Part shown: one piece after another, positions 4,458 to 60,462 of the stretch
Layout of the letters: each line of letters starts with the position of its first letter
How positions within the stretch are numbered: the stretch's first letter is position 1
NCBI GenBank assembly: GCA_000091205.1
Contig: AP006484.2
Length of the DNA: 64,000 nt
Strand: one strand, 5' to 3'
From: Cyanidioschyzon merolae
Taxonomy: Eukaryota
The notes under the pieces: model-generated
What the model was told of the DNA's origin: nothing
Databases searched by the model: none
What the model saw: the letters and a program-made list of their open reading frames with translations, nothing else
Translations under genes and position numbers: made by a program

Positions 4458-4739
4458 GGAACAAAGACCACTACACCCGCTCGAAGAGGATACTTAAATT
4501 TGCGGAGAAACAGATCGCTGCTTGCGCCATGTGCTACCCAATCACCAGTATGAACCATTTTGGAACCTAAATGTATATTTAGTTTCATTATAACCCCATG
4601 GCGGCACGTGCGGAGACTTTTGACCTGATCGTTGCTCCTTGCGTAAGGCGCTTGTAGTCTCCCAAATCAATCGTGCTCAACCCCCAGGTGCAAATAATCA
4701 AATGCTTTTGTCGCGGTTTAAGGCAGATGCATTCGATGG

Positions 4740-5205
4740 GCATTCATTTTCAAAAATTAACAATCCAAGGGAAAGGTATTGGCATGGAAGTCGAGGTTCC
4801 TGAAAGCTTGGTGTTGCCAGATCGGTGAAAAATCGGAAAAAACTTTTCTCCCAACAATCGAGCAAAGAAGAGCCAGTGCTTGAAAAGAAGTTGAAAGGGA
4901 GGCGGTCGAGAAAAAAAGTTTTGCCCAAAGGGACGATGACGAGACTGTAGTGGCACAGAGGGCATGAGTTCTAGGAATCCCTCCACTGGTGCGTACAAGC
5001 AGTAGCTAGAAACGCGTGTAATTCGTGAGCTGCGACTTAACCGCCGCCGTTAACACCAGGAGATGTGCGATGCTGAAGACGAGACCCTCAGAGCTGACGC
5101 GGACGAACTTTGTGGAGCAGCCCTTCTTGGATCGAATTGTACAAGGAGTTGAGGCGGAGAGCATGCTGCCGGTCAAAATGACTGGGAGGAGTCTGCGCGT
5201 GGGTA
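4740..5205 (+). repeat. Diverged relic of the TnpB/Fanzor-like element family (3' portion only)
   Basis: About 470 bp align by eye to 47725-48195 and to the 3' end of repeat B. The translated frame gives ..VSCDLTAAVNTRRCAMLKTRPSELTRTNFVEQP.., compared with NRDFNAAINFRRCALLKTEPEELRRYNFVRQP in repeat B. The conserved nucleotide tail ..ggtcaaaatgactgggaggagtctgcgcgtgggta matches the B1 tail. No intact ORF. Confidence 0.45.
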
Positions 5206-6339
5206 GATATGTGTGCTCCCAATGTTCCTAGAACGTTTATCGTTATGCTGAAGCGCATGTAAAAAGTAGTGTTGAATTCTTTCTTGTACAATAATGTGGT
5301 GCAATTTGCTGCACCCACGAGTTGAGATGAAAGAGAAAGATCAAAAACATTCAGAAATGCGATGTTTGCGCATACTGCACGTTAGGAAAGAAGAATGCCG
5401 GAGGTTTGTACGATGAATTGGATAATGACAGCAGTCAGTTTACGAACGCTCGGTCGAATGCATTCCAAATCATCTTGATTCTGGTGACGCTGTAAAGTTC
5501 AGCTGCAAAAATCGATGGAGCAACATCGAGAGCGAACAGAGATCCCTCGAAGTACTTATGAATTCCCAAGCCCTAATTGTAGCCCGTTGTATGCCAAGGC
5601 TGTATAAAAGTTCCTTGAAACATCGAAAGTCCGGAATGGAGCGAGCTGTTCAGTGGTTAACTTAAATCTTAAACGGGTTTAGCACTGCGGTCGCATGGGC
5701 TATAACGCACTCCATGTCCATGCCGCCGTCCCTAGCATGCCACATCCTGCTCGTAAGCGGATGCTGAGCATTTACACAAGTTGATTAGTACGCATCGAAC
5801 AATCAATCCTTGCCAACGAAAGGGAGCTGATGCCTCCCCTTCAGCGCTCCGCATTTACAGATGGTTGCGATGAAAACGCTGGCAATTCTACTGGAAATCA
5901 CAGGACGGTGGAACAGGCTTCGTTTTACTCGAAGCACAACTCTGGTCACGTATTTCGCTCCGGCACTCTCACATTGTGGCCACAGAGCGTATCACTCACA
6001 GCTTGAAACGCGTGCTGGAGCCCATGCAGTATGCGTCTTCGGATGAATGAGCGCTGCGGAAGGTTTCACTCAGACGCCTCCCGGAGCTGTCCTGTTAACG
6101 GTTGAAATTCATATCATAGAGCAGAATTGTAAATCGAGCTCTTGCACCTCTTGTGGCACAGGGACTGATAAGCGCTTCGCCCTCAATGCTCTTTATTCAT
6201 TGCAAAAAGCAAAGCTCCCAAACGCTACTGGATTGAATGCGTACAATGCAGAACCAAGACTGTAGCGTACTCCCCGATGCTACGGCATCGACTGCCACTT
6301 TCATGCTTTACATCCTCAAATGCTGCTGCCAGCTGGGGT

Positions 6340-7767: not shown

Positions 7768-7894
7768 GCTGCTTTCGGAGCTAGGCAATAGAGTCGAAAG
7801 GCAAACTATGGACGTCGCTGCATAGCGTCTCAGTCTGCCGGCGAACGCCAATGCTGCTGCACGCAGTCAAAATGGACGCCAGAACCGCATCGAA

Positions 7895-9930: not shown

Positions 9931-11302
9931 GAGTTTTCATCTCAATTTTGTCGCACCCGCGCTGCGGTGCGTACAAAGAGTGATCGAAATGACTATGCAA
10001 GATACCATAGATATCGAGGTCGGATTGTCCGTAAGTTACATTCTTTACTAAACCGTGCATGGATCGCTGCATTCCTCCTTCAGGTACGTATACCATAATA
10101 TTCAGATGGTTGAGAAGCACTGAAAGAAAGAAGTATATGCACTCCGCGTCGAAAAGCGATATTTCCAGCGACTACTTGGTGGCGATGCTAGAAAATAACC
10201 CGTGGATCGAGTTAGGGAAAGCAAAACCTGCGATAATGGCTGCCACAGGCGTCCTTCTTTCCCACAAGCTTGTTCGTGTGATCCTAGAACACTGGGATAC
10301 AGTCTCAAAGAACGAGTCCTAGTTCATGCGCGGCCATCATCCACCGAAATCGGAACTATAGTGTTCCTGGCACGACGCGATCCGTAGAAAGCAGAAGATC
10401 GTCGGTTTGTTTTTTCAGTCGATGAGACTTGCTTCGGACGACACGGTCGGAGCGTATATGGGCGTTCGTGGAGCAGGGCACCCATTGTGTGTATCATCTA
10501 ACTCGAAGAGAACGATCACATCATCATCTGTTCTAGATGCAGTGGATTCATTTGGCGGCCTCAGTTTCGCTCGTGGTGGAGGCTCATGCAACAGCACCCT
10601 CTTCTTTGAATCATTGAAGACTTTTCCCTGATGTCAAGCGTAGTCCTGCTATCGGACAGCGTGACATTTTACCATTCCCTTGCGATCGAGCCTCTGCCGA
10701 TTTTATCCGGATAGGTCTGCTTGCCATTCCTCCGTGCTCTCCGTGACTAAACCCCATCGAAGAAGCGCTTTCTATCGTGAAACGTAACCATCGCTCCATT
10801 GGGTGAAGCGCTGAAGCGTTCAGCACACGGTGACACACCAGGGCACATGTCGTCTCGCTTCCGCAAGTCCTTCTTGATCCGTGAAGATCCTCACTTAAGG
10901 GCATGAAGAAGTGTGTTCGTTTTGAAGAAATACAATACCCGAGAGATGAGCTGGGGTGCACACTTCAGAACGTCGAGATGAAGAAAAGCCAGCGGAGCGC
11001 TTCGCTGGTAGAAAAGCACGGAGTGTTGAGAGAGCAGCAAATGGCGCAGACGGCACGTGTTCGAGGAATCCCGCCACAGTTGTGCTCAACGAGAGGCAAA
11101 AAAAACGCATGAAATTCTTGAACCGAGACTTCAATGCCGCTATCAATTTCAGACGGTGTGCGTTGCTGAAGACGGAACCCGAGGAGCTGAGGAGGTATAA
11201 CTTTGTGCGGCAGCCTCTCCCGGCGGAAGTCTATGAGGTGAAGATGAAAACGATAGCAGTGGGCCGGTTGAAAGAGACTGGGAGTTGTCCGCGAATGGGT
11301 AT
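9931..11302 (+). mobile_element. Repeat family B, copy 1: non-autonomous or decayed TnpB/Fanzor-like (IS200/IS605 OrfB-type) element
   Basis: 9931-11284 is about 99% identical to 23941-25294 (offset 14010). The 3' part encodes a RuvC-III-like motif (LNRDFNAAINF). There is no TIR. A subterminal hairpin CGCACC-n8-GGTGCG sits at 9952-9971. The family-level 3' end, to about 11302, is defined by its alignment with the relics at 5.2 kb and 48.2 kb. Confidence 0.7.
9952..9971. other. Subterminal stem-loop at the left end of repeat B (6-bp stem CGCACC / GGTGCG, 8-nt loop); the same structure is at 23962-23981
   Basis: A direct reading of tcgcacccgcgctgcggtgcgtac; it lies about 20 bp inside the repeat boundary. 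Confidence 0.6.
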
Positions 11303-11399
11303 TAGTTCACCTTGGAAAGAACTGAAACTATCGCTCCACCGATCGTATGCAGCGGCCGCTTTGTGCGTTCCCTCTTTTCAATATATTGAGGCAAAATAA
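10950..11399 (+). pseudogene. TnpB/Fanzor-like nuclease C-terminal fragment (RuvC-III region), frameshifted upstream
   Basis: Translation: ..CSRNPATVVLNERQKKRMKFLNRDFNAAINFRRCALLKTEPEELRRYNFVRQPLPAEVYEVKMKTIAVGRLKETGS. D-R-D-x-N-A-A-x-N-[IF] is the OrfB zinc-ribbon / RuvC-III signature of TnpB, Cas12 and Fanzor proteins. Upstream frames contain only scattered Cys and stop codons, with no WED, REC or RuvC-I/II region. Confidence 0.55.
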
Positions 11400-15016: not shown

Positions 15017-15847
15017 GATCCAAGATACGAGTGAAGTTTAGCCAAGGTTTTCAGTGCTCTGCGTCATGGTCGAGCTGCGTTAAACAGAAGAAACTTGTTT
15101 TGTCAAATTTAACTAGACACCTAGGTGGACCACGGCGTCTCGCGGGATTCGGATGAGTAGTTCTGTGGCTCGCCTCGACTGTATCAATCCGCTGGTCGAC
15201 GTAGCCTCCATGAACTTGACGAGGATTCTGGCAACGCAGGGATAAAGAGCGGTCTCGTTTCCTCGAAAGACGCTCGTTACGAAAGTAGCATTCATTGGGA
15301 GAAAGCCGCTAAATCAGAGTTGACGTTGAATGCTGCTCGCTCAGGTCTTTTGTGCTCCCTGCTGAGCATTAACTCGCTTTAGAGTTCCGACATTTTCGGT
15401 CAATTTCCGCTATTTCATCCGCTTATTTCTGGCAAACTTTTCCGCTCTGAGCTGCTTTCGATCTGGGTAGCCAGCGTTTATCCCGTGCGAGAATCGCTTC
15501 TCACAGGAAGCCACAGATTGCTGTTCTCGACCAACGGAATGTCCGTATGACAGTAAACCTGTGGGACGCAGAAACCAGCTCGTTCCAGGCTGTGCAAATC
15601 GCTACTTTGTATGGTTTAAGTTTGATGAATCCTCTCTGAATCCTCTATACATGCAAATGCGAAAACCCGGCTTTCAGGAAAGGAACCGTAGATCCTCCGC
15701 AGAAACCTACATATACCACAAGCTCCTGACTCGTATCAGCGCCAGCAATAGAGTTAAGATCGACCAAGCGTGCCTTCTAGAATCGGGCTCGCTGTAAAAG
15801 CTCTAAATGGCACTGGATGCGCTGCGGCATGCGATACTCGAAGAGCA

Positions 15848-17249
15848 CATGCACTGCATGAAATGTTTCCATCCATGGCATTATAGAGCGGAACGAGTTC
15901 CAGCGAGGTAACACGGCCACACACAATCAAGCATGAGCGTCTTCTCGCTGTCATCAACACAGGCTTTTGCCGGGTTCTTTGTGACGAGTTCCTTCGTCCC
16001 TCCCTTATATCCTTCTTTGAATACGTCGGTCTCCCCTTTCCCTCGGCATCTGTTGTCCGCAGACGGAGGAGGTTCATGGCAGCGTTACTGTCCAGGCTCC
16101 GCACGTTCCGACTGTTGGCCGCACATTTCATGCGCACGCAGGCGTTGCAATCTATTTATCGCTTACTGCACTCATTTTCTATGTTTACGGCCTCGGTGCG
16201 CCTCTCGCAGGGATGACACCTGCTTATGGTGAAATTCCCTCACATTTCCGCCACATATTCTATCTAGAGCGCCGCCACGTAGCGCGCGAACGCGTGCTTC
16301 ATCCGTCGGTATGTGCCCTTGACATGCACAGGAGGCTCTCTTCAGTGCCCCCCTCTGTTTGGTCGTCTGGTACGGTACCCCACGATCACGGGCTTGCTGT
16401 GAGCGATTCCAGGGGTGCGTTTTCTGTCCAGCGCACACGCGAGCACACGTTGTTCCATTCGATGAAGGATTCGTCGAATGCAATACTATCTCTGATGAAA
16501 CAAGAGCCGGAAGCAAGGTCGAGACTGAAGAACAATTCGAAACGTTTCGATGCATCTACGCTCCGTTCGTGCAACCAGGTGACGCACGCTTCACCCGGGG
16601 AGATCACAGCAATGACTAAAGGCCGAGTCCGGGACCCGTTTCCGCGCAAACGGAAACTGCGGGAGCCCCTGGGCATCATACCCAGTGAGATGTGTGGTGC
16701 CGTTGTCGAAAGCCGTTTCGTCGATAGCCACAAAGAGAGGAGGATTTTTCTCGCGAACGCGATCGATTATTTGACGTGAACAGCCCAGTGAAGTTGCAAC
16801 ACGAGCTTGTGAAATAGCAGTCGAAGGATGGCGTCTTGGCAAGCACTTTTCCTCGTCAATCCAGGGGCGCGACATGCTGCGCACGCGAGTTGCCCTGAAA
16901 CAGAAAGATCGAAGACTTGAAGAATGCGTGATCTAGGCATGCTACGTGTAAGCAAAAGAGAAGTGCCGCGGCACGTACGCGTCGAAATGTTTTACGATAT
17001 CGGCTATTTTATTAGCCCGCGTTCGAGCGCGTCGCGAACCATTGTGATCATGGTCATGCGAAGTATTCCCGGGGTAAAGACTCGGAGGCATCACATCGGA
17101 AAGACGTCCGCGGATTCTCGACTGCTTGCGAATCCTCACGCGGTTATCGCTGCTTATCGGATGTCGAGCATGTACATCCCAAAAGTTCGGAAAAAATGAA
17201 TGGCAAGAATAGAGTACGCATGTCAGTTTCCTTTCTTAATCCAACACGA
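15848..17249. repeat. Dispersed repeat family A, copy 2
   Basis: Collinear and about 99% identical to 7895-9296. It diverges from copy 1 immediately outside these coordinates. Confidence 0.85.
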
Positions 17250-18990: not shown

Positions 18991-21900
18991 AACGATACCG
19001 CCGTGTGGAAATCGTCTCCGCGAAGCGTCGCGAGCGAAAAGGAAACTGCATTGTGTCGCACTCTGCACCATCCTGGTATCTGCTTCAAGTTGCGCACGCT
19101 GCTCCTTTAAAGTTGGTTTATTTTCGGCAATCAACCCTCTATGCTCGTTGCAGAAGAATACTGCGATCGCGAGGAACTCCCACCCTCGAGGAATCATATC
19201 ACAATGACTGCGATGTTGCTCCATCCTCTCGTGCTTCCTCGATATTACTTGCGCAGTCGTTTAGAAAGCTACTGTACTGAGAAATTTTCAACAAGTTAGG
19301 CGACGGTTGAAAACAGCACTGAATCTAGTTGGGCTGCGTACACGCACGGAAACGGCAGGAATTGCTCAGCGTGCTGCTCGAAGCGGGAGAGCAGTTCGCC
19401 ACCGGTTTCGGACTAATGGAACACTGGACTGCGCTCTATTCTCCTGCTTTTCAAGCTTTCAGAACTTCTTTAAATGTGCAGCCTCGTGACTCGAGTGCAG
19501 GAATAAGGGCTTGCGAATTAAAATGTGGTTTTACAGTTTACGGAAGTCTTTCCACGGAGGCCTCTTCGACTCTTTGCCGATGGAACTCGATGTCCACGAA
19601 ATCAAGATGAAGCGCTACCTTCTAATAAGGGTTTGTAACATAAAGGATATCATTATCCAGTTCATATGCCCAAGCCTTCGCTCGTCCCCTTTCCTTACAC
19701 GTAGCATGGTCAATCCACGAAGTCTTCAAGTCTTGAATCATTCTGTGTTTAGGCAACTCTAGCGCGCAACATATTGCGCTGCTGTGTCGTCTAGGAAAGA
19801 GAATTCAACAGTGTCCCTTGACGACTTCTTCACAAGTTCAGAGCGAAGTCTCATTGAACTTATCACGACGAATAATCGATTCCGTTAGATAGAAAAATCG
19901 GTCCCTCTCTGCGGCGACCGGCGATACTGCATTCGACAGGAGAATGATACCTCTCAGGATGTGTGCGCCTAGAAGCGCCGGTCAATTCTGCTCGCAAGCG
20001 CAGGTAACTTGGACTCGGATCTCAGTCGTCGCAAGAATCGCTTCCAGTAATGCGTGCGTCTCCGCCTTCAGTGAAGCGAGCGTTGACAAATCGAAATTCC
20101 GCTTCTATTTCTCCAGCCAGGATTTTTCCTTCCGTTGCTTGTTTCATCATGGACAATATCGAGTTCTACAATTCATTCCTAGAATAGAACGGATTGCGCT
20201 TTCAAGTATAGCGACTAGAATATTCGCCGAGGGAGTCGCTCAGAATAAACTCGTGATAGCAGGGTACGGTACCGAACTTGGAAACTGAGAGAAGCGCCTG
20301 TGGAAGTCTTAAATACATGCCACGGAAATGCACCGAGCCATGAAGCAAGCGTTCACAAGTCGCATGTCGGCACTTGGGGAAGTACGTGTGGTGAACGTAC
20401 GGGACCAACCGAACGCAGCCAGGTCCCACCACTGCGAAGAGCTCACCGAGGATGTGTTTTAAGAAGTTGAAAACGGCAATTGGTACCTAAATAGAAAAAA
20501 CATCCTCCTGTACATGAAAGAGTCAACAACAGGTGGAAGCAGGGAGACAGGGAATTTAACGTTGCTACCAGCGTCATTTGACTGTCTGAATCGGAACTGG
20601 GGAAAGTAAAGACCAACATATTTAGAGCAGGAGACCATAGAAAGGAAAAGAAGCTGTCCCTGCGAATGCCGGCAAAAGCCTTTGTTAAAGACCGCGAGAC
20701 GAGAACCAAACTTTGATAGGAATTTCCGAGCGAGCCATGTGGAACACTTTCGATCTTAGTCTCACATGAATGTACTGCAGATGGTGGGCACGCCCTTTAT
20801 AATGAATAAATGTCTGATAATGCCTCTTTACAACTTATATTCAGGAGATTCTAGAAGAAGCAACCGTGCCGTGGATCTTTGATACTGTAAGTGGGAGGAG
20901 ATTTGGAACTCCTACCTCTTCATCCTCTTGACTAATCGCGCACAAAAGCACTCCGACACTTTAACTTGACTAGCTACAACAGACTAATATTTCGTAACCT
21001 CAGGTTACCCCTGGCTCATCTTCAAAGAAAATAAATTTTTCCAGGAGGTACTAAATATGGACAACGTCCAAGAAAAATTCAAAATACGTCATCGAAATCG
21101 CCCTGCTGCGAAAATTAGAAATTCGCTCAGATCTGAAATTTTTGAAAGGCAAATTTCGCTCCCGTGTGCCTTAATAGATGTCTCCCAACAGAATGATTTA
21201 ATGTATTCATAAGCTCAGCCCAAATCGTTCCGGCCTGCGTGAAAACTGATAATTAATTTTTCTTCGTATTCAACGATTAGACTCAACACTGGGCTCGTCG
21301 AACTTGACCATCGTAAAATTTTGCTGCTTCTGTTGATTATATAGGATTCGTTTTTACTGGACCGTCTGCCAAGATCTATACGCAACTAGTGAGTATGGAA
21401 CCTTTACCGCATACTGAGTGCCAGTGGAGTCTAAGTTAATCTTTAATCTTTTTTTCAGGCTGAGGGCCTGCAGCCTTGTTTCTGAGAAAAATACCTGTCA
21501 GAGACCCCGTTGAAACTACGGTGAGCGGTGGAACCATCAAGAGTTACTCTCGGCATCGTTGCGTTTCTCCATATAGAACGCTTTTGGAGAATCCGGCCAA
21601 TAATGAGGGAACTGCGTTCTGAGACTTGACGGAGATTGCTCGAAAAACAAAAAAAGTATTATTGTCATGCGTGGTTCGAACCGCGTCAGATATTCGTGCG
21701 CCTCTTAATGCCAAATGTGGTAGTCGGTGTCACTATCGCATGCTCGCATCCCATCCTGGCTATCTGGTAATGATTTGAGCCTTCGCAATTACTAGTTGAA
21801 TTGCATCTATCCAAGCAATTGGTATCTCAGAAATCCTTTCAGATCATCTCGTGGAATTACACACTTCGAAATAAAACTCAATAAATCCATTTGCGAGTAC

Positions 21901-23940: not shown

Positions 23941-25294
23941 AGTTTTTCATCTCAATTTTGTCGCACCCGCGCTGCGGTGCGTACAAAGAGTGATCGAAAT
24001 GACTATGCAAGATACCATAGATATCGAGGTCGGATTGTCCGTAAGTTACATTCTTTACTAAACCGTGCATGGATCGCTGCATTCCTCCTTCAGGTACGTA
24101 TACCATAATATTCAGATGGTTGAGAAGCACTGAAAGAAAGAAGTATATGCACTCCGCGTCGAAAAGCGATATTTCCAGCGACTACTTGGTGGCGATGCTA
24201 GAAAATAACCCGTGGATCGAGTTAGGGAAAGCAAAACCTGCGATAATGGCTGCCACAGGCGTCCTTCTTTCCCACAAGCTTGTTCGTGTGATCCTAGAAC
24301 ACTGGGATACAGTCTCAAAGAACGAGTCCTAGTTCATGCGCGGCCATCATCCACCGAAATCGGAACTATAGTGTTCCTGGCACGACGCGATCCGTAGAAA
24401 GCAGAAGATCGTCGGTTTGTTTTTTCAGTCGATGAGACTTGCTTCGGACGACACGGTCGGAGCGTATATGGGCGTTCGTGGAGCAGGGCACCCATTGTGT
24501 GTATCATCTAACTCGAAGAGAACGATCACATCATCATCTGTTCTAGATGCAGTGGATTCATTTGGCGGCCTCAGTTTCGCTCGTGGTGGAGGCTCATGCA
24601 ACAGCACCCTCTTCTTTGAATCATTGAAGACTTTTCCCTGATGTCAAGCGTAGTCCTGCTATCGGACAGCGTGACATTTTACCATTCCCTTGCGATCGAG
24701 CCTCTGCCGATTTTATCCGGATAGGTCTGCTTGCCATTCCTCCGTGCTCTCCGTGACTAAACCCCATCGAAGAAGCGCTTTCTATCGTGAAACGTAACCA
24801 TCGCTCCATTGGGTGAAGCGCTGAAGCGTTCAGCACACGGTGACACACCAGGGCACATGTCGTCTCGCTTCCGCAAGTCCTTCTTGATCCGTGAAGATCC
24901 TCACTTAAGGGCATGAAGAAGTGTGTTCGTTTTGAAGAAATACAATACCCGAGAGATGAGCTGGGGTGCACACTTCAGAACGTCGAGATGAAGAAAAGCC
25001 AGCGGAGCGCTTCGCTGGTAGAAAAGCACGGAGTGTTGAGAGAGCAGCAAATGGCGCAGACGGCACGTGTTCGAGGAATCCCGCCACAGTTGTGCTCAAC
25101 GAGAGGCAAAAAAAACGCATGAAATTCTTGAACCGAGACTTCAATGCCGCTATCAATTTCAGACGGTGTGCGTTGCTGAAGACGGAACCCGAGGAGCTGA
25201 GGAGGTATAACTTTGTGCGGCAGCCTCTCCCGGCGGAAGTCTATGAGGTGAAGATGAAAACGATAGCAGTGGGCCGGTTGAAAGAGACTTGGAG
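23941..25294 (+). mobile_element. Repeat family B, copy 2 (TnpB/Fanzor-like relic); its 3' end is about 20 bp shorter or diverged relative to copy 1
   Basis: About 99% identical to 9931-11284. The hairpin CGCACC-n8-GGTGCG sits at 23962-23981. After ..aaagagact the sequence differs from copy 1 and from the other family members. Confidence 0.7.
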
Positions 25295-25304
25295 GCGCCT
25301 CTGA
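24960..25304 (+). pseudogene. TnpB/Fanzor-like RuvC-III fragment (copy 2)
   Basis: Same translation as in copy 1 (..RMKFLNRDFNAAINFRRCALLKTEPEELRRYNFVRQPLPAEVYEVKMKTIAVGRLKET), then it terminates (..WRRL*). Confidence 0.55.
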
Positions 25305-25585
25305 CTAAGTGTTATTTTAATCTTCCTGGTGGTGGAATGTTTTTAGTTTTACTGAGCCTATGGTGCAGATTCCACGATGATTTCGGATACGATTTTTCGT
25401 CGTTGCACTTGCGAGGGTGCACCGGTCAGAAGTAGAGCCGCGAACTTTCCGCTGTTTAAGACGCCGAATAAGTTTCCGTGGGTAGAAGGGCATCGTTTGC
25501 TTCTTTGTGTCGACCGGCCAAAAGAGTGGAGCCTGTGAGAGGTACGTCCACCACGACGAGGGATCTGTAGGGCAGAAGCCTGCCA

Positions 25586-27982: not shown

Positions 27983-28155
27983 GTGCTTCGACCTCTATCG
28001 AGGTATTGTAATCCTTAGATATTGTCAGACTGACGGCTGAGGCGGAACTGCTTACAGCAGCAAATCTCTGCCCTTCGGCACGCTTACACCAGTGCAAGCT
28101 CTTGTATCTGTAACGGCATCTGCTGTGTCTCTTCTTCGTGTTTTCCCGCAGGAAC

Positions 28156-30372
28156 TCGACAAAAAGATTTCACCCCGTACATTCGAGAAAGGTCACGTAA
28201 GCACTACATGATGTCAGTGCTTGCATTTGAAAAACGAACTTACTTTCACATGCAAGTCATTCTACGAACGGCGGGTACAGGAACCACCCTTCTCGTAGTC
28301 CACATACTACGTGGTGTGCATCCAAAATAGAACTTATCAAACTCGCTATCGACGACTGTTTCCTCGTCAATCCTTTCCGTGCGATACGTTCTTCACGAAA
28401 CGCTACCAAGGAAGCAACAGTGCGGCAACTTTACGCAACGCTGATACGAACGGTGGAGAACAGACACGGATGGAAAAAGTAAGATGTATGCCTCTATGGG
28501 AGAGCGGTGCGCGTTGCTCACCGAACTATCAGAGTCGCACCCAAATACAAAAGCTTATTGCCGCAGCAACGAATGTTCGTCTCACTCGACGAGACTTCAG
28601 ACGTAGTAGATCTGCATGAGGGCACTCGAAGAGGGCCCCATTGTCGCCCGTGCAGAATAGACGAGCGAGCATTCCGACAACGTCAGCCCTGGCGATGATT
28701 CCACTGCTTGGTCGCCTACGAATCGAGAAAAGCACAGGGTAGTTCGGCAACGCTTCTCGTCACCTAAGCAGTTCGTGGCTCCCCGTTACCGCTATCTTCC
28801 ATCCTGCTCTTTTACAGCGTTGCTTTCCGTCATCCAAAGGCGGTCCAGGAGCACGTGCCCGAGACTGGCATTGAGCGACTATTTGTGCCTGCCGATTCTC
28901 CGAGATTCGATCCTATGAAAGGCATCTTCTCTGCTGAGAAACGCCAATATACGCTCCCGGATCGATAGTCGAGTCGTTCGCATCCGTGGAACCGTCCGTC
29001 GACGAGTCCTTCCGTGCTGGTACTATCCCGGAACTGGGCTGCTGACCCTCTGCTCGAGCCAGGAAGTGAGCGGAAGGGCTCGCTTCGGTCGCACCGCCGG
29101 CCCAGTACCAGTGAGTCCCGAGGGATAACATTCGGATGTAGCGTATAGGAGAAAAACCCACGGAGAGACGAGATCAACCTGCAACCATGGTCAAGGCACT
29201 CCTACGAAAACACATCACCTGGTAGAATCTCTCCCAAAGTGAGACGCTGGACGTTGTTTAGCGAAAAATGCCTCCTACTCTGGGAAGATTCGTCTTCCTT
29301 CTCTCGCCTTGACACACATCCTCAAGCGACTGTTGGTAGGATTGTAGGAGACAGGACGGGCAGCTGTCCAGAGTCTGCCGTTACGTATTCAGTCCAACCC
29401 TGGTGCGACAACTGATGCTCTCGATGGAAGACGGAATACATACCCGGCTTTTCTATGGCTGTATCTCATCGAGAGTCGGGCATGTTCGACGCTACGAGGC
29501 GCACCAGCAAGCGGAATGTCGGCGTCACGACCTGTCTTGACACACTGGGCTTCGCATCGAGCAGGGAATGATGCTCCAGACGCCTCTCATAGAGTATACA
29601 TGATCGTCCGGATGGGTCATACGGGCGCACTTTGGCTAAAGCACATGCATCCGTGTTGAGGTCGCCAACGTTTCCGGTTATTCGGAGGGGAAAAACGTGC
29701 ACTCGCAACTCTCTCGTTGCATTCGATGAGGAATTGGCAGACGTGTTGCGTCTGTTCTTTGGTTGTAGCCTACGGCGCTGGATATGCTGTTGGGCGCGAG
29801 GGTCGCACTCGTGCCGCATGTGGAGCACACAAAGAGTGCAGCAACCCATGCTGCACGATGCCCGTCTTTGCGTACAGGACGGCATACATATATTGCGAGC
29901 ACAGGTGCGCACTGAAACCTGCACGGGAGAAGAGCGTGAATCGACGCTGGATGCACGGGATGTCGCACAAAAAGCTGACCGAAGGTCAGGTTACGAGAAC
30001 ATTGACCGTGGGCGGCTTGGCTTGGTGTGATTCGACCAGGAACAACGCGCACAAGCACTTGCTGCAGCATGACTTGAAGGTTTCGATCAGCAGTCGGGAC
30101 TATCCCACGCTTCCAAAGCGACCAGCGGCTTTATCTTCGGAGGAATTTGGAGGGAGTCCTTTCGCAGCTAGTGTGGGCATTGTGCTGGAACGCTGAAGGC
30201 TTGCGATGAAGAAAAGCAGTATCGGCCAGGAGAGAGGGTCGGGTTTCCATCCGAAGCAACGCACAAGGATGATGTCGTCAGCGACCCAGATATGCTAGAG
30301 CGCCGAATGCGTACACCGAGAATGATTTACCATGGCAATCGGTGAAAGATAAATATGGTCCATTATTCGAAA
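28156..30372. repeat. Dispersed repeat family C, copy 1 (about 2.2 kb, unclassified, no long ORF)
   Basis: About 99% identical to 58246-60462 at a constant offset of 30090. It starts TCGACAAAAAGATTTCACC and ends ..TGGTCCATTATTCGAAA. The 11-bp inverted repeat at 28232-28264 has one mismatch in this copy. No TSD, TIR or LTR is evident. Confidence 0.85.
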
Positions 30373-31639: not shown

Positions 31640-31870
31640 GGTCTAGCACATGCACTCAGCTCGTATGCTCGACGAACGTACAATCTCGTTCAGTTGCATT
31701 AAGTGAAGTTCTATTGCATGCACTCAGCTCGCATGCTCGACGAACATGCAATCTCGTTCAGGAGCACAAAGGAAAGGTCTACTGCATGCGAGCGACTCTT
31801 GTTTTGGACTAACATCCGAAATGGCTCTGGGGTACTGTGTCAAGGTCTCCTGCATGCGAGCGACTGTGTC
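31640..31870. repeat. Degenerate tandem repeat (about 50-70 bp unit, 3-4 copies) containing repeated CATGCA / GCATGC motifs, just upstream of the next gene
   Basis: Recurring units are gcatgcactcagctcg[t/c]atgctcgacgaac[g/a]t[a/g]caatctcgttcag (twice) and ctgcatgcgagcgact[c/g]t (twice). Confidence 0.6.
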
Positions 31871-45300: not shown

Positions 45301-47334
45301 CTAGCTGCGAAATGAGAGACTCGAAAAATCGTTTTTCAATCTCTGGCTCGTCACATGCAGGAGCACTCTGACGCGGGTGGAGTGTTCGATACCGAGCACT
45401 TCACTTGCCCTGCGAATTGCGTCCAGAACGTCGCAGTCCAAACATGCAGCTAGAACGATAAGACGCTGGATTTCAGTATCATCAGGAAACCGTCGACTTA
45501 TGAGTACCCGGATGGCTTCCTCTTCGACAATTGGCTTGGCTGCACGTGAGAGCGATGATGATGCCCGTTCCTCGCCGAGCACAGCTACCAAGAAGCGGCG
45601 CATCTCACGTAAACGCTTTCGAGTGTGCGGCTCATGCAGAGGAAGCTGCTGAACATGGCTAGCGCGCCGCGTTCGATCTTCCGTCTCTGATTCGATGGAG
45701 AGCGCTTCGTCAATCGAGCATCGCCAAACTTCCGCGGCTACGGCCTCTTCGAGCTCCTTAATTTGCGACCAACCGAGGCCGAAGAGACTCCGAAGTGCAG
45801 CAAGATTTTTTGCTTCGTAAGCGATCATATGTGCGAAGATGGTGCTCTTGTACATCCGCGAAACATAACAGCGATATGCGTCGCTTAACGACTCCTGCTG
45901 CTCGCGCCGCTTCTGCGGTATCACTACTTTGCGCATAACATTCGTTACTTGCTCATTACCGGCAGCACATTCATCGATGCACGGGCAGAGCCAGTTCCGA
46001 TACCAGCGGAGGAGCGCATCGGTTTCGCGGAGTGCACGTCCGTAGTCTCGTTCTTTCATGAATGCATGGATATTGAAGAGAAATTTTTCAATGTGTTTTC
46101 GCGCTACTTCTCCGATGATTTGGGGGATTTGCCTCTTGTTCCGGTGATTGCATTGCTCGCACAGCTCGCCAAGGCGTCCATGTGAAAAGCCTTGCAAATG
46201 ATTCAAAAAAGCGGGAAATTCGGGTCGTCGCTCCGTTTCTCCCGGTGCTGATTCTGCTCTCGAAAGCGATGCACAGCGTATGGCTAAAACGCTGCCGTGG
46301 CAGTCCGCATAGAGCGCCTCGAAAAGCGGCGTTCCCGACGTTGCTTCCGAGCCTGGTGCCGCTCCATTCCTCGAAGCATCGATGCCTTCAGTTCCTGGAC
46401 AAGCAGCCTCGCGTCTCATGAAAAACCTCTGCAGCGCGCACCACCAGGATGCCTTAGAGGCTGCCACTGACGCGTGCTGCCCCGTTTCTGTCACCGTTTT
46501 AGGGGAAACCTGTGCGCCGTCCGCATCTGTTTTAACGTTGGATGATGCGCCCCTCGGTGGAGCCCATGAAGGTCCAGAGAGCCTATCAGAAGCAGCAATC
46601 CCCGACGATGATTCTAGCCGCGCATTGGCCACGGATGGCATAGAATGTTCAGGCTTCTGAACTTTCCGCGGCCTTCTCTGCGTCAGTCTAAGCGTGAACG
46701 ATATCATGGCAAACGGTACAGCGAATCCGAGAAGCACGAAACCTGCAATTGCTCCCGGAATTTGTCGCAAGATTGTCTGGGGCGACGACAGTGCTTCTAC
46801 AGAACTCTTTGCAAGCACACATGGGTTTTGCTTGGAGTCGGCGACGCGGTAGTAACCGGATGCTTGTTGCAGCCGCTGAGGTGCTACGCGCACAGATACC
46901 TTTTTCGTACTCTGCTCCGTTACGCCTTGCAGCGAGCCATGCGCGTGCGAGTAGCTATGTTTCAAATACTGTTGCACCTGGAGAGCAGCTTGATTCAAAA
47001 GAGTCTCCATCTTTACAGCGCGCGCATGCCCCGGTTCCAGCTGAGCGGTGACGTGGACTCCTTCGCAGCTTTTGAGTTGACCCTGAACGACACCACGAAT
47101 CAACCAGTATCTATGGAAACCTCGCCTCTCACACGCCGATCTAGGTCTCGCTGATGCAAAACGAAACTTCGCTGCTTGGCTCCGACAAGCAGGTACGAAA
47201 GCGAACGCCAGCCGAAAACTTCTTGGCATAAGTTTCGGGTAAGGAGAACGTTGCCTGTGGTCGTTTCTTTTCCCAAAACGCAAACCTGAAGCTTTTCCAC
47301 CGCCATTCCCAAAAAGCGAAGTTCTCATGGACAC
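45301..47334 (-). CDS. Hypothetical protein (677 aa) with one predicted TM helix; no recognisable domain
   Basis: A long uninterrupted minus-strand ORF with coding-like composition. A hydrophobic segment reads ILRQIPGAIAGFVLLGFAVPFAMISFTL. The start codon is uncertain. Confidence 0.4.
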   Translation of the reverse strand: MSMRTSLFGNGGGKASGLRFGKRNDHRQRSPYPKLMPRSFRLAFAFVPACRSQAAKFRFASARPRSACERRGFHRYWLIRGVVQGQLKSCEGVHVTAQLEPGHARAVKMETLLNQAALQVQQYLKHSYSHAHGSLQGVTEQSTKKVSVRVAPQRLQQASGYYRVADSKQNPCVLAKSSVEALSSPQTILRQIPGAIAGFVLLGFAVPFAMISFTLRLTQRRPRKVQKPEHSMPSVANARLESSSGIAASDRLSGPSWAPPRGASSNVKTDADGAQVSPKTVTETGQHASVAASKASWWCALQRFFMRREAACPGTEGIDASRNGAAPGSEATSGTPLFEALYADCHGSVLAIRCASLSRAESAPGETERRPEFPAFLNHLQGFSHGRLGELCEQCNHRNKRQIPQIIGEVARKHIEKFLFNIHAFMKERDYGRALRETDALLRWYRNWLCPCIDECAAGNEQVTNVMRKVVIPQKRREQQESLSDAYRCYVSRMYKSTIFAHMIAYEAKNLAALRSLFGLGWSQIKELEEAVAAEVWRCSIDEALSIESETEDRTRRASHVQQLPLHEPHTRKRLREMRRFLVAVLGEERASSSLSRAAKPIVEEEAIRVLISRRFPDDTEIQRLIVLAACLDCDVLDAIRRASEVLGIEHSTRVRVLLHVTSQRLKNDFSSLSFRS

Positions 47335-47724
47335 GGGAGCCCGTGCGTTGCGTTTCCGTGCGTCGCCTTGCCTTGCTCAGCTTTTCGGAGGACCTTGGAA
47401 TACAGAACCCTTTCTTCCCAGTAGCGCGCACGGATGTGCAATGCTCGCGGGAAATCGTTATTTGGCGCGAAATCGCTAGTCGACAGCGGCGCTGCCGGCG
47501 GGGTCTCGCTGCTCAGCCATCGCCATGGGTCGTAACCTAAAGAATCCCAATTGTACATTTATAACCCTAATTGTACATAAATCGCTTCCTCGAAGGCCAT
47601 GGACCGTATCGCGAGGGAATTCGGCCCTTCATCGTCAGGGTCCTTGTACTCTTCCAGTTCAGTTGTGTTCCATCCCAGGTGCGTGTCAAAAAACGCTTTT
47701 TCGTGGTTTCTAACAGATATACTC

Positions 47725-48195
47725 GAAGTGCATTCATTAGAGGAAATAAAAAATGCAAGGGGAAGGTATGGACGCAGAAGTCAGGGATACTGGAGGACCG
47801 TCAATGCCGGATACAAAAAATGTAGGGATTCCTCTTCCGACCGAGTATCGACTGAAGTAGAGCAACTAAAAAAGAAGCAGAAGAAGGGACACAGACGAGA
47901 AAATGTGCTACTTCACGGGATGATGACCAGACTTTGATGGCACAGAGGGCACACGTTCGAGGAATCCCTGCCATGGAGAGTTGAACCAGAGGCAACCAAC
48001 GCATGGATTTCGTGAACCGAGACTTCAGCGCCGCCATCAATATCAGACGATTTGTGACGTTGAAGAAGAGACTCGAGGAGCTGACGTGGGCAAATTTTGT
48101 CCGGTAATCTCTCATGCTCGAAGTGTACAAGGAGAAGCTGAAGCCGACTTCAGGAGGCCGGTTGAAAAAGGCTGGAGTAGGCTGGGAGTGGATAT
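47725..48195 (+). repeat. Diverged relic of the TnpB/Fanzor-like element family (3' portion), homologous to 4740-5205 and to the repeat B tail
   Basis: The translated frame gives ..TRGNQRMDFVNRDFSAAINIRRFVTLKKRLEELTWANFVR*, the RuvC-III motif, then ..LEVYKEKLKPTSGGRLKKAGVGWEW (compare B: AEVYEVKMKTIAVGRLKETGS). The nucleotide tail ..ggccggttgaaaaaggctggagtaggctgggagtgga is conserved with B1. Confidence 0.5.
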
Positions 48196-50077
48196 TCTTT
48201 TAACCCTCGGTTTCGAAACTTTCTCGCTCCATTGCCCGAATACGATAAAACAGTTAGATGTTCGCTCTGCTCCTGCATGTAAATAGTTTATCCAGAATTT
48301 TCTGACGTGTACGGCCTCGACAATCGATGTGTAGCGATATGGTCTTGCGGATTGAATCGTGGTCGAAGGACCCGCGGTGGTATTTTCGGAATGACACGTT
48401 TGCAGCTTGGCCGGGGATATTCGATATGTCACCGGAAGCAAGATGATTCGTGACGTATTCGAATAAAGGTTCGTAAAATAACCGACATGGTCATCCAGTG
48501 GATATGTAGAAACCTCTACAATTCTGTTTTATGTACGCCCAGCATGGTAAAACCATGCATTGTCCTAGTTTTCGTGCTTGCAATCTCAAGCAAACTCGTG
48601 GGTGCAGCCATTCGAGCCGCAGATTGGATGGCGAGATGAGTCGACCTCTTCCCTCAACTACTAGTTTTCATGCTCGTGCCCATGGTCAATTGAACTCCTG
48701 CGCCAAATAATCGATTTCATTCGAAAAACAAATCCGCCAACGGTGACATCTACAGAATGGTTACCCGCTGCAGCATGAGACCCCCATGGGGTATGCTCCT
48801 CGAGGCTGCCGTCTCGTCTGATTCGCTCGAAAACGGTCATAGGCTCGGACTTTAGTTATCATAAAAACCGCTGCCATCGGAGAGAGCGTCACAGAATTGC
48901 AGGAAGCAAGCGTGAAGGGATCGAAAGTTCTCGACTTGTTCGCCAGCCTCGAGTTCCTTTTCTGTGTAGGTTTCGTCTTCGATAACACCGCGAACCACGA
49001 ATTCTCTATCAAATGGAACGACATCCGCTTCCATATACAGCTGATATACTACTCGGGGAGAAAATCGCCCAGAAAAAGTATGTGATTGCAGGGTACGGCA
49101 GCAAGCGTTGAAACAGATGAGGGCATCGAGGCGAGCCTTCTGTAACAGTCAAGTTCATGGATGGAGCAACGAATCAAGGCTCCATGCTCCGCAGGGCAGC
49201 GCTCGTAGGTGGAGACGATTTGGCGCCCATATAGGGATACTTGACTACAGCCAAGTGTGACCATTGCGTAGAAAACACCTAGCCTGTGCGCAAAGAAGAT
49301 GAAGATGGCAAGCGAGGCGTAGATCGAAGCATCCGCCTGCCCATGAACTGTGTTGACAACCACCGAAAGAGGAAAAATTGTATTCCAAGATCATCATCAA
49401 AATCTTTCAACTGTTAACAACGGAGTTGGAGAAAAAACAGACCGGCTTCATTAAATCCAGAGTTCCGAGAGAGAAGCTGAAGCAGTCGCAGAAAAAGAAG
49501 GCGAAGGCTATTCGGGATGGCAATTGGAACAGACCCAAATTTTCAGCGTGTACGCCTTACATAGCTAAATGGACTCATTCCAATGTACTCAAATATCGAT
49601 ACAGAACTTGCCGCATTCAGCGGAGCTGCGCCAGGTCGGGACCGCCTCCGTCAAAAAACGCTTCGCTACGTGCGAACCTCGAACCGCTGTCGAGTGGCGA
49701 TAAAAGGAGATGGTCTCTTTCTTTGGACAGTTTCTACCAGCTGTCCGCTAGATAGCGCTACGTTGCTTTTGATTCGCCGAGATTTCATTCGCTCACGGCG
49801 TAGTGCAGGTCTCAGATCCATGCTATGTTTAAATTGACTCTGGAAAGTTCTTGCGTTTGAACGCCATTGCGACAGGGCGAGCGCTCTGCTCGATGATGCT
49901 TCCGATAGGGGATGGATCCAACCAGCTACGAATGTATTGTAGTCCTCGGCCGGCGCAATAGTATCCTTTTATCATTTCGAATTGGAAAGAGCGCAGTGCA
50001 AAACTGCGTGCTATTCTCGTCGCAGCCTACTGGCCGAAAATCTGGAATGAGAATGATTGTTGGCGTTTGGACCCATA

Positions 50078-57088: not shown

Positions 57089-58245
57089 ATCGCTGTCTAG
57101 TCTCGTAGTAGCTGGTCGGCGGTAACACGCCTAACTATGAAACGATGTCGGCTGATATACGGCCAGGAGAAGCCGAACAACGTTTGCGGCACTTGGGCGC
57201 CTGCCGGGAGCGGTGAACCAGCTGGCCGCTTCTGGAGAAGCATCGAACGTTTAAACAGAATGAATCACTTTGCGCATTCGATAAAAAGTACTCCCGATAT
57301 CGCCAGTATTTCACTGTTCGGCGATTTTGCTGTTGGTCGCTTCGAGCCGGGCTCAGTGAGCGAATTTCAGAGGAATATTGCTCTAAGGCTGGCAAGTGCG
57401 TGTATCCGCGAAAGACAAGAGCTACGTTCCGCTAGATACCGATTCCATTCTTCCATTCAGCGATATCGGAAGTAGACGCATCGATCCTGAACGATACGGT
57501 AGACAGGCACGGCTCTTCCGCCTTGGATCGACTCCCGCGAGCTGATTTAAAGTTGCAATCAGCATCTGGTAGCCCTCGTGGAGTCGAGATGCGGTTTTTG
57601 GTACACTACTGAAGCTTGTTACCTCTTTCCGGCGTATTAAGAGCGTTCAAGCGCTGCGTGAGAGGCCAAAGCTTCCCTCTAATGAGCTGATGCGTACCTT
57701 GGACACATCATCGAAGACGTACTTGGCAGAAAGCGCGGCAATATGGATGCTAAATCGCTGTACGTGTATTCGAATCCATAAAAGCGCATCATAAAGGAAT
57801 AACGTATGTTCCTGATGCGTTAAAGCACAGGCAATACATCCTGCGCGAGAAACTCTCGTGCCATCCTTTACGGGGTCAAGATAATATTTCCGCTCATTCC
57901 GCTGGCATAGCGGGGAACTGGTACGCAAAGCTTCCATTGGCAGACAGGTGCTCTTGCTGCGAATTGTACAGCGAATATGTGGAACTCGATGCCCCTGATA
58001 TTCCCGAAGAGAATAAGCCAAATGGAATGCCAGTTTTGTAGTCAGCCGGGTGCAGCTTATACCGGCCATTGCGGAACCGGAAGCGTGGCAACGTGGCCAA
58101 CGCATATGCTGAAACGTTCCTGGAATATTGGATCCATCAAAAGTGGCATCTGCGATACCGCGAAAAGGTATGCTCACTGGAATGGGTTTTGAAATACCTA
58201 GAACGGCACGCATCGTTTGCCTTCTCTGATTCCCGTCGCCGGTAT

Positions 58246-60462
58246 TCGACAAAAAGATTTCACCCCGTACATTCGAGAAAGGTCACGTAAGCACTACATG
58301 ATGTCAGTGCTTGCATGTGAAACACGAACTTACTTTCACATGCAAGTCATTCTACGAACGGCGGGTACAGGAACCACCCTTCTCGTAGTCCACATACTAC
58401 GTGGTGTGCATCCAAAATAGAACTTATCAAACTCGCTATCGACGACTGTTTCCTCGTCAATCCTTTCCGTGCGATACGTTCTTCACGAAACGCTACCAAA
58501 GAAGCAACAGTGCGGCAACTTTACGCAACGCTGATACGAACGGTGGAGAACAGACACGGATGGAAAAAGTAAGATGTATGCCTCTATGGGAGAGCGGTGC
58601 GCGTTGCTCACCGAACTATCAGAGTCGCACCCAAATACGAAAGCTTATTGCCGCAGCAACGAATGTTCGTCTCACTCGACGAGACTTCAGACGTAGTAGA
58701 TCTGCATGAGGGCACTCGAAGAGGGCCCCATTGTCGCCCGTGCAGAATAGACGAGCGAGCATTCCGGCAACGTCAGCCCTGGCGATGATTCCACTGCTTG
58801 GTCGCCTACGAATCGAGAAAAGCACAGGGTCGTTCGGCAACGCTTCTCGTCACCTAAGCAGTTCGTGGCTCCCCGTTACCGCCATCTTCCATCCTGCTCT
58901 TATACAGCGTTGCTTTTCGTCATCCAAAGGCGGTCCAGGAGCACGTACCCGAGACTGGCATTGAGCGACTATTTGTGCCTGCCGATTCTCCGAGATTCGA
59001 TCCTATGAAAGGCATCTTCTCTGCTGAGAAACGCCAATATACGCTCCCGGATCGATAGTCGAGTCGTTCGCATCTGTGGAACCGTCCGTCGACGAGTCCT
59101 TCCGTGCTGGTACTATCCCTGAACTGGGCTACTGACCCTCTGCTCGTGCCAGGAAGTGAGCGGAAGGGCTCGCTTCGGTCGCGCCGCCCGCCCAGTACCA
59201 GTGAGTCCCGAGGGAGAACATTCGGATGTAGCGTATAGGAGAAAAACCCACGGAGAGACGAGATCAACCTGCAACCATGGTCAAGGCACTCCTACGAAAA
59301 CACATCACCTGGTAGAATCTCGCCCAAAGTGAGACGCTGGACGTTGTTTAGCGAAAAATGCCTCCTACTCTGGGAAGATTCGTCTTCCTTCTCTCGCCTT
59401 AACATACATCCTCAAGCGACTGTTGGTAGGATTGTAGGAGACAGGACGGGCAGCTGTCCAGAGTCTGCCGGTACGTATTCAGTCCAACCCTGGTGCGACA
59501 ACTGATGCTCTCGATGGAAGACGGAATACATACCCGGCTTTTCTATGGCTGTATCTCATCGAGAGTCGGGCATGTTCGACGCTACGAGGCGCACCAGCAA
59601 GCGGAATGTCGGCGTCACGACCTGTCTTGACACACTGGGCTTCGCATCGAGCAGGGAATGATGCTCCAGACGCCTCTCATAGAGTATACATGATCGTCCG
59701 GATGGGTCATACGGGCGCACTTTGGCTAAAGCACATGCATCCGTGTTGAGGTCGCCAACGTTTCCGGTTATTCGGAGGGGAAAAACGTGCACTCGCAACT
59801 CTCTCGTTGCATTCGATGAGAAATTGGCAGACGTGTTGCGTCTGTTCTTTGGTTGTAGCCTACGGCGCTGGATATGCTGTTGGGCGCGAGGGTCGCACTC
59901 GTGCCGCATGTGGAGCACACAAAGAGTGCAGCAACCCATGCTGCACGATGCCCGTCTTTGCGTACAGGACGGCATACATATATTGCGAGCACAGGTGCGC
60001 ACTGAAACCTGCACGGGAGAAGAGCGTGAATCGACGCTGGATGCACGGGATGTCGCACAAAAAGCTGACCGAAGGTCAGGTTACGAGAACATTGACCGTG
60101 GGCGGCTTGGCTTGGTGTGATTCGACCAGGAACAACGCGCACAAGCACTTGCTGCAGCATGACTTGAAGGTTTCGATCAGCAGTCGGGACTATCCCACGC
60201 TTCCAAAGCGACCAGCGGCTTTATCTTCGGAGGAATTTGGAGGGAGTCCTTTCGCAGCTAGTGTGGGCATTGTGCTGGAACGCTGAAGGCTTGCGATGAA
60301 GAAAAGCAGTATCGGCCAGGAGAGAGGGTCGGGTTTCCATCCGAAGCAACGCACAAGGATGATGTCGTCAGCGACCCAGATATGCTAGAGCGCCGAATGC
60401 GTACACCGAGAATGATTTACCATGGCAATCGGTGAAAGACAAATATGGTCCATTATTCGAAA
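58246..60462. repeat. Dispersed repeat family C, copy 2
   Basis: About 99% identical to 28156-30372. Here the subterminal hairpin is perfect: TGCATGTGAAA-n11-TTTCACATGCA at 58322-58354. Confidence 0.85.

Follow-up and report, generated by a model that had tools for sequence, protein, structure and literature searches.

A likely deletion derivative of a Fanzor1-carrying DNA transposon, in decay, in Cyanidioschyzon merolae

Introduction

Fanzor proteins are RNA-guided nucleases, and the solved Fanzor1 ribonucleoproteins (SpuFz, PpFz, GtFz) come from loci whose 3′ end encodes the omega RNA. A short sequence in the last third of the window (the whole analysed stretch of 64,000 nt of Cyanidioschyzon merolae DNA) was predicted to be the surviving 3′ part of an element of this kind. 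Does this locus, hereafter element C, preserve a guide RNA or another function, or is it a remnant of a mobile element? We found that C is an ordinary transposon relic, neither a working gene nor a demonstrable guide-RNA locus, and that the family to which it belongs is CMe-1A of C. merolae or a sister subfamily. Judged from sequence comparison, 47644–48235 is likely to be a non-autonomous element that arose by deletion from a DNA transposon with a Fanzor1 gene, of the CMe-1A lineage, and has since decayed.

CMe-1A was described in C. merolae by Bao & Jurka (2013; Mob DNA 4:12; PMC3627910) as a family with about 150 members, each of which shows ∼80% identity to the consensus of 3169 bp; it was reported to have neither terminal inverted repeats (TIRs) nor target-site duplications (TSDs), its superfamily was given as unknown, and its first 635 bp were found to be common to another element, TE-N2_CMe. 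Fanzor1 within Mariner/Tc1 transposons is known from PUl-1 and PGv-1 (PMC3627910), and an association of Fanzor1c with Mariner/Tc1 was described by Jiang et al. (2023; PMC10530073).

The protein remnant belongs to a Fanzor1 family

The peptides from which the locus was recognized are real: they correspond to the ORFs 48003–48107 (MDFVNRDFSAAINIRRFVTLKKRLEELTWANFVR) and 48114–48203 (MLEVYKEKLKPTSGGRLKKAGVGWEWIFF), and their resemblance to the family is not due to chance, as the C-terminal 56 residues of protein P0005 (aa 696–751) align to 47937–48101 with 54% identity (tblastn, E 5.6e-9). No match was obtained for the peptides of C and of the B copies in a phmmer search against PDB, nor for the 147-aa ORF in Pfam; a word-indexed protein search had the ORF itself as its sole match. 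The homology became visible only once full-length relatives had been obtained from a metagenome scan. Scanning with the aligned peptides produced 261 relatives, from the metagenomes in which the window's own sequence is also present; 79 loci were kept, representing 45 distinct copies, several of which carry long ORFs (up to 752 aa called). Long family proteins have the motifs GADPGNTN (RuvC-I), VDEFRTS (RuvC-II) and FVNRDFNAAINIRR (RuvC-III). A second protein search returned full-length relatives of 604–702 aa, with 27–40% identity, from unrelated samples.

A profile of 12 full-length relatives matched in PDB the Parasitella parasitica Fanzor1 (9cf0, E 7.8e-13) in two blocks, spanning the WED/RuvC-I and RuvC-II/III regions; the Guillardia Fanzor1 was matched weakly by the same profile. 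When one relative was modelled with AlphaFold (pLDDT 80.7), the seven best Foldseek matches in PDB were all solved Fanzor1 structures (SpuFz, PpFz and GtFz; E ∼1e-16, TM 0.5–0.69), with Cas12f far behind. The Pfam version searched, which lacks PF26935, found PF07282 alone in the full-length relatives, at a marginal E of 0.57. Between RuvC-II and RuvC-III, where a C4 zinc finger would lie, the red-algal members read HHELGC...KC...RGLLALVS, and more distant relatives keep RGLLWC. Given the profile match to 9cf0, the AlphaFold/Foldseek result and the tblastn alignment at 47937–48101, the Fanzor assignment is secure for the family, in agreement with the predicted Fanzor/TnpB-type C-terminus, and the RuvC-III motif of C (VNRDFSAAINIRR, 48012–48050), which aligns to the family motif, is a genuine remnant. 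Whether it deserves to be called the cleanest is a matter of taste: in NRDFSAAINI it has S where the family has N, and two in-frame stops lie in the remnant.

Many family members and distant relatives match the Pfam entry PF26935 (DUF8286), precomputed on many of these Fanzor1 proteins (P0003–P0088; loci L084–L087), so this domain of unknown function seems to cover a portion of Fanzor1. In one full-length copy (P0092; L037 4137–6545 and L066 225–2633) the Fanzor stop codon was lost (TAG to TAT), and the open frame crosses the right end and enters a gene for glycerol-3-phosphate dehydrogenase. Because of the lost stop, the 801-aa ‘G3PDH’ protein of the source begins with a Fanzor tail; it is probably a gene-calling artefact.

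Anatomy of element C

Coordinates of C and of the related elements in the window are collected in Table 1. The left boundary of C is common to element R and to two metagenome loci, L061 and L038b; the right end was set from family alignments. It had been claimed that only the 3′ part survives; however, C aligns to the CMe-1A consensus in two blocks. The first (47652–47800 to consensus 793–938; 68%, blastn E 8e-9) covers the 5′UTR and the start codon, located at about 906 in the consensus; the second joins 47937–48175 to consensus 2832–3073. Missing from C is ∼1.85 kb of the consensus, from ∼970 to ∼2830. The ATG at 47768 is followed by MDAEVRDTGGPSMPDTKN, comparable with the N-terminus of CMe-1, MEKEVEDPGGPVSPAAGKK (PMC3627910 supplement), and the N-terminal remnant is interrupted by stops and frameshifts. 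Since the 5′UTR and N-terminal codons are kept, C is an internal-deletion derivative, not a 5′-truncated relic. LINE-like 5′ truncation was rejected for the same reason, the 5′UTR and start codon being present and the junction internal.

Table 1. Position of element C, its parts and related elements in the window
Feature	Coordinates	Strand	Basis or remark
Element C, likely internally deleted non-autonomous Fanzor1-transposon derivative	47644..48235	+	∼592 bp; subfamily sf2, class 2a
C, 5′UTR-homologous segment (CMe-1A consensus ∼793–905)	47644..47767	+	blastn; alignment with 17 full-length loci
C, Fanzor start codon and ∼30 N-terminal codons, remnant	47768..47900 (end approximate)	+	reads MDAEVRDTGGPSMPDTKN...
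C, deletion junction zone	47901..47936 (approximate)	+	two BLAST blocks on CMe-1A
C, last ∼85–90 Fanzor codons, remnant with two in-frame stops	47937..48203	+	tblastn, frames, ORFs
C, non-coding right end, read as decayed terminal inverted repeat	48204..48235	+	family alignment
Element R, second copy of the same short derivative as C	4652..5251	+	67% identical to C
Element B1, longer sf2 derivative, junction class J2	9934..11342	+	DDE_3 remnant, Fanzor C-terminal remnant and right end
B1, degenerate DDE_3 transposase	10086–10824		
B1, Fanzor C-terminal remnant	10946–11303		
Element B2	23944..25355	+	99.9% identical to B1 over 1351 bp, terminal 58 nt different
B2, transposase remnant	24096–24834		
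More distant element of the same architecture (transposase-like, then Fanzor)	28147..30372	+	
Distant element, transposase-like fragment	28783–28947		
Distant element, Fanzor C-terminal fragment	29510–30154		31.7% identity to P0005 aa 540–752, E 2.6e-16
Duplicate of 28147–30372	58237–60462		98.8% identical, 2226 bp, 30 kb apart

A complete RuvC split domain with WED/REC in one frame is absent from C, as RuvC-I and RuvC-II fall within the deletion and the remnant has stops; no DDE_3 transposase was found in this copy either. The stop codons, the degraded terminal repeat and the lack of excess RNA structure (see below) make copy C most likely inert at present. The flanking genes are ordinary eukaryotic ones with long uninterrupted ORFs (Kelch, GRWD1-like WD40, SPX, EamA, Myb and ANTH), and JGI metagenome contigs carry identical copies of the window genes.

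Copies in the window and subfamilies of CMe-1A

Comparison of the window with itself revealed four related stretches, C (47643–48196), R, B1 and B2. The predicted kinship of C with the B copies and with the relic R is borne out: identity is 67% over 555 bp between C 47643–48194 and R 4651–5205, 73% between C 47937–48196 and B1 11041–11303, and 74% with B2 25051–25294, while the peptides of C and B share 62% over 34 aa. On the CMe-1A consensus R also forms two blocks, 800–969 and 2840–3088. Stops or frameshifts were seen in the protein-homologous region of all four copies.

We refer to full-length loci as sf1 and to the deletion-derivative copies, including C, R, B1 and B2, as sf2. The sf1 loci are 74–85% (mean 82%) identical to the CMe-1A consensus and encode the same protein as CMe-1. 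Upstream of full-length copies we saw one of two alternative modules, TE-N2_CMe or another conserved sequence of ∼450 nt. Fanzor elements have a fixed right end and a variable 5′ side, which echoes MCi-2 as described by Bao & Jurka (PMC3627910). They often lie head to tail within 1.2–1.5 kb of each other (e.g. L014 3075–5102 and 6638–8967), and in L025 and L062 an sf2 copy is situated ∼1.2 kb upstream of a full-length copy.

The identity of B1 and B2 (9934–11284 and 23944–25294) begins exactly at the left boundary of the element, and stops 58 nt short of the right end, where each has its own variant of the family terminus, C-like in B1 and consensus-like in B2. The pattern resembles the outcome of a recent ectopic gene conversion between old copies separated by 14 kb rather than that of a recent transposition. 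Just upstream of the RuvC-III motif of a B copy (25083–25113) an A-run has 8 A in the window and 7 A at the same locus on a metagenome contig (L004 3399–3695, P0002), where the called ORF is shifted; the difference reflects a polymorphism or else an error in sequencing the homopolymer. At this position C and R are two bases shorter and in frame.

The pair 28147–30372 and 58237–60462 represents another lineage, more distantly related, in which the order of the genes is the same. Other repeats in the window include a 1403-bp repeat at 7894–9296 and 15847–17249 (99.4% identical), which holds a 188-aa ORF and a 250-bp part of which is also present, inverted, at 19690–19938 (67%), and a tandem duplication at 31642–31777 with a 68-nt unit (81% identical).

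Linkage to a DDE transposase

In the longer sf2 copies the left boundary and the Fanzor remnant lie about 900 nt apart. Weak DDE_3 matches, to complementary parts of the Pfam model, were obtained with single copies; the translated majority consensus of nine longer copies matched PF13358 (DDE_3) with E 3e-22, together with weak helix-turn-helix matches (HTH_33, 2e-4; HTH_Tnp_Tc3_2, 3e-4). The consensus transposase had 134 homologs at E ≤ 1e-5, and among the matches listed many were ∼290–300 aa long, contained PF13358 and bore the JGI name ‘transposase’. A degenerate DDE_3 gene upstream of the Fanzor remnant was also seen in L011, L018, L062, L067, L077, L037, L051 and L082.

In intact distant relatives ∼35 nt separate a DDE_3 gene of 292–301 aa from the 652-aa Fanzor1 gene downstream of it. 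TIRs of 27–34 nt, clear in L084, L085 and L088, flank the unit, with TA at the outer TIR ends in L085, L086 and L088. Apparently intact two-gene elements of ∼3.0–3.2 kb are present in L085, L086 and L087 (GCA_013573075.1, GCA_013572825.1 and GCA_013572995.1) and in L084 (ENA ERZ10759712), with 130–220 nt from the Fanzor stop to the right TIR. These intact elements come from relatives with only 30–40% identity; among the loci recovered there was no intact transposase-plus-Fanzor element of the exact CMe-1A/sf2 lineage, and no transposase was found within 5 kb of full-length CMe-1A copies. The degenerate DDE_3 transposase upstream of the sf2 Fanzor remnants suggests that the CMe-1A lineage, published as unclassified, belongs to the IS630/Tc1-mariner superfamily.

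The right end of the element

The similarity between copies had been thought to end at TGGGTA or TGGATA. Pairwise BLAST does stop at TGGATA (48196), but alignments of 13–14 sf2 copies run ∼40 nt past it, to ...GGTCGTGAAACGTTTTCGTTTTACTGA, which is 48235 in C. There C ends in ...CTCGCTCCATTGC, the matching end in other copies being ...TTTTACTGA. The sf2 right-end consensus matches the 5′ terminus of CMe-1A (positions 8–30) in inverted orientation at 21 of 23 positions, a result reached in none of 2000 shuffles, and the inverted match is also present in the well-preserved L067 and L011. On account of this match the terminal ∼30 nt are best read as a TIR. The right end of C itself is too decayed and showed no match to the CMe-1A 5′ terminus (p 0.54); the right end of CMe-1A showed no inverted match to its own 5′ terminus. 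The match also concerns TE-N2_CMe, which has the same 5′ terminus as CMe-1A; both elements are reported to lack TIRs (PMC3627910).

In eight sf2 copies no significant left-end TIR was detected at the left boundary or within 200 nt upstream of it; CCATGG motifs spotted by eye near sf2 left boundaries are attributable to chance. No TSD was readable at C, R, B1 or B2. With no partner repeat at the left and no readable TSD, we infer the copying mechanism of the short elements rather than observe it. The right end is supported as the best-kept boundary of the copies.

Two other interpretations of the right end were rejected. The sf2 copies end in CTGA, similar to the CTRR of Helitrons; however, the 3′ flank is not T, RepHel is absent and a DDE transposase is present. 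The sequence ...CCACTACTG followed by TA was considered as the true right terminus of CMe-1A; however, when the consensus is folded it is base-paired to coding sequence farther upstream, and the published consensus runs past it.

Shared deletion junctions

The junction of C, at ∼970/2830 of the CMe-1A consensus, occurs in R, L061 and L038b as well as in the transposase-bearing copies L011, L018, L062b and L082b; besides C, at least seven loci share it. In C, R, L061 and L038b, the metagenome loci being unrelated, both the left boundary and the internal junction are identical. As the same breakpoints are found at unrelated loci, one deletion derivative appears to have arisen once and then to have been amplified by copying. 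A second junction, ∼895/2737, was seen in B1, B2, L067, L076 and L025b. Both of these independent deletion classes retain at least ∼250 nt of the 3′ coding sequence.

RNA structure of the 3′ tails

In Fanzor systems the sequence specifying the guide RNA lies at, or overlaps, the gene's 3′ end and the TIR and continues beyond them (PMC10530073). The original prediction placed such a structured RNA at the right end. Consensus tails do show excess structure: compared with shuffles, the fold of the CMe-1A (sf1) tail has z −2.9, with a long stem pairing coding CAGTAGTGG with downstream CCACTACTG, and that of the sf2 tail has z −3.0. No such excess is seen in the window copies, the tails of which fold no better than shuffles (z +0.85 for C, −0.50 for R, +0.23 for B1 and −0.58 for B2); a 304-nt stretch of C gave z 0.00. 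A terminal hairpin of 7–9 bp is present in both sf1 and sf2, with its register shifted. As hairpins amounting to about 45 nt of the sf1 tail are missing from sf2, the putative RNA is not conserved between the subfamilies.

Compensatory changes, which were expected among the copies, did not emerge in sf1: RNAalifold gave a weak consensus for 34 sf1 tails (−10.9 kcal/mol), and in 35 sf1 tails there was no covariation beyond shuffles, with 81.1% of paired cells versus 80.6% in shuffles. In 14 sf2 tails covariation was marginal (33/500 shuffles). A match to a curated RNA family likewise did not materialize; the Rfam 15 scan over 47400–48500 gave sub-threshold chance matches only, in a collection that may hold no Fanzor RNA model. 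The lack of covariation among neutrally decaying copies is compatible with a functional ancestral RNA and gives it no positive support either. An omega RNA is thus plausible for the ancestral elements and unsupported for copy C.

Discussion

Starting from the demonstrated family identity, two-block architecture, shared junction, transposase linkage and pseudogene state, we propose the following history of C. The ancestor would have carried a gene for an IS630/Tc1-mariner-type DDE transposase and, downstream of it in the same orientation, a gene for Fanzor1, the whole bounded by TIRs. One internal deletion would have taken ∼1.85 kb out of the Fanzor gene, leaving the 5′UTR, ∼30 N-terminal codons, the last ∼85–90 codons with the RuvC-III motif among them, and the right end. 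The derivative, with or without the transposase, would then have been copied to many sites, presumably mobilized in trans by the DDE transposase, and would have undergone neutral decay. The retained 3′ segment may once have specified a structured guide (omega) RNA.

It is on this last point that an alternative can be built, namely that C is a 5′-truncated relic of which the right end alone survives, because it still encodes an omega-RNA scaffold that is required in cis or still in use; C would then be a solo omega-RNA locus for Fanzor proteins produced at other sites. We regard this alternative as unlikely. Known Fanzor guide RNAs do overlap the gene 3′ end and the TIR (PMC10530073), the consensus tails are unusually stable, some two-sided changes occur in the sf2 terminal hairpin, 3′ coding sequence was retained in two independent deletion classes, and full-length copies with long ORFs exist in the same population. 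Yet C also retains the 5′UTR and N-terminal codons, its own tail shows no excess stability and has lost both the terminal hairpin and the TIR, covariation is absent in sf1 and marginal in sf2, no Rfam match was found, and the copies are ∼67–74% identical to one another, as expected under neutral decay. In a related proposal, which we also consider improbable, the short derivatives would be Fanzor-dependent hitchhikers that shed both protein genes and kept the 3′ guide-RNA module and the right-end repeat. They would rely on Fanzor from full-length CMe-1A copies to cut DNA under RNA guidance and to be copied into sites that are new or have been emptied. Such hitchhiking would explain the retention of at least ∼250 nt of 3′ sequence in two classes, the fixed right and variable left ends and the lack of a left TIR.

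That a full-length copy was inserted at this site and whittled in place by independent deletions, the fragment never having been mobile, seems very unlikely to us. Internal deletions are common in old transposon copies, and neither a TSD nor a left TIR was found at C; still, independent deletions would not repeat the same breakpoints, while the two-block structure and left boundary of C recur at R, L061 and L038b and its junction class recurs in the transposase-bearing L011, L018, L062b and L082b. Exaptation of the piece as promoter or 5′ regulatory sequence of the minus-strand gene ending at 47334 is brought to mind by its location, ∼310 nt upstream of the start of ORF 45301–47334 (−). We give this reading hardly any weight, because C bears no sign of constraint and diverges from its relatives as other copies do. 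The amplified, now decayed deletion derivative is the reading that we retain.

The finding itself is a routine transposon relic of low novelty. Modestly new in comparison with the 2013 description (PMC3627910) are the linkage to a transposase, the relation by inverted repeat and the existence of two deletion classes. CMe-1A, a hitherto unclassified red-algal Fanzor1 family, becomes tied to an IS630/Tc1-mariner-type transposase and a TIR. One small, nearly intron-free genome offers a natural series of full-length Fanzor-only elements, elements with a transposase and a deleted Fanzor gene, and doubly deleted elements. With this series one can conveniently ask which 3′ sequences must be present in cis for a Fanzor element and whether such elements produce a guide RNA.

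Comparison with known systems

Compared with CMe-1A, the window copies represent a diverged subfamily with an internal deletion of ∼1.75–1.85 kb, which aligns at ∼70% in the 5′UTR/N-terminal and C-terminal/3′ blocks; its right end is without two hairpins and ends in ...GAAACGTTTTCGTTTTACTGA, and some sf2 members bear a DDE_3 transposase remnant.

As in MITE-like deletion derivatives of DNA transposons and TnpB-less derivatives of IS200/605, the C-type elements are short, internally deleted and amplified, with coding capacity lost. In contrast to those, their ends are not recognizable mutual inverted repeats, no TSD was seen, and the 3′ portion kept is unusually long (about 340–430 nt).

With solved Fanzor1 ribonucleoproteins (SpuFz 8gkh/9ceu, PpFz 9cf0 and GtFz 9cer) the full-length members share the fold and the RuvC motifs, although identity is only 11–16% and in the red-algal proteins most of the zinc-finger cysteines have given way to other residues (...RGLLALVSTT... 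for RGLLWC...).

Mariner/Tc1-Fanzor1 elements differ in that the transposase of C's lineage was seen as pseudogenes only, and TIR and TSD are unreadable at the window copies. They resemble this lineage in having a DDE transposase followed by Fanzor1 on one strand, in the TA-flanked TIRs of the related intact elements, and in the coexistence of Fanzor-only copies with deleted non-autonomous ones.
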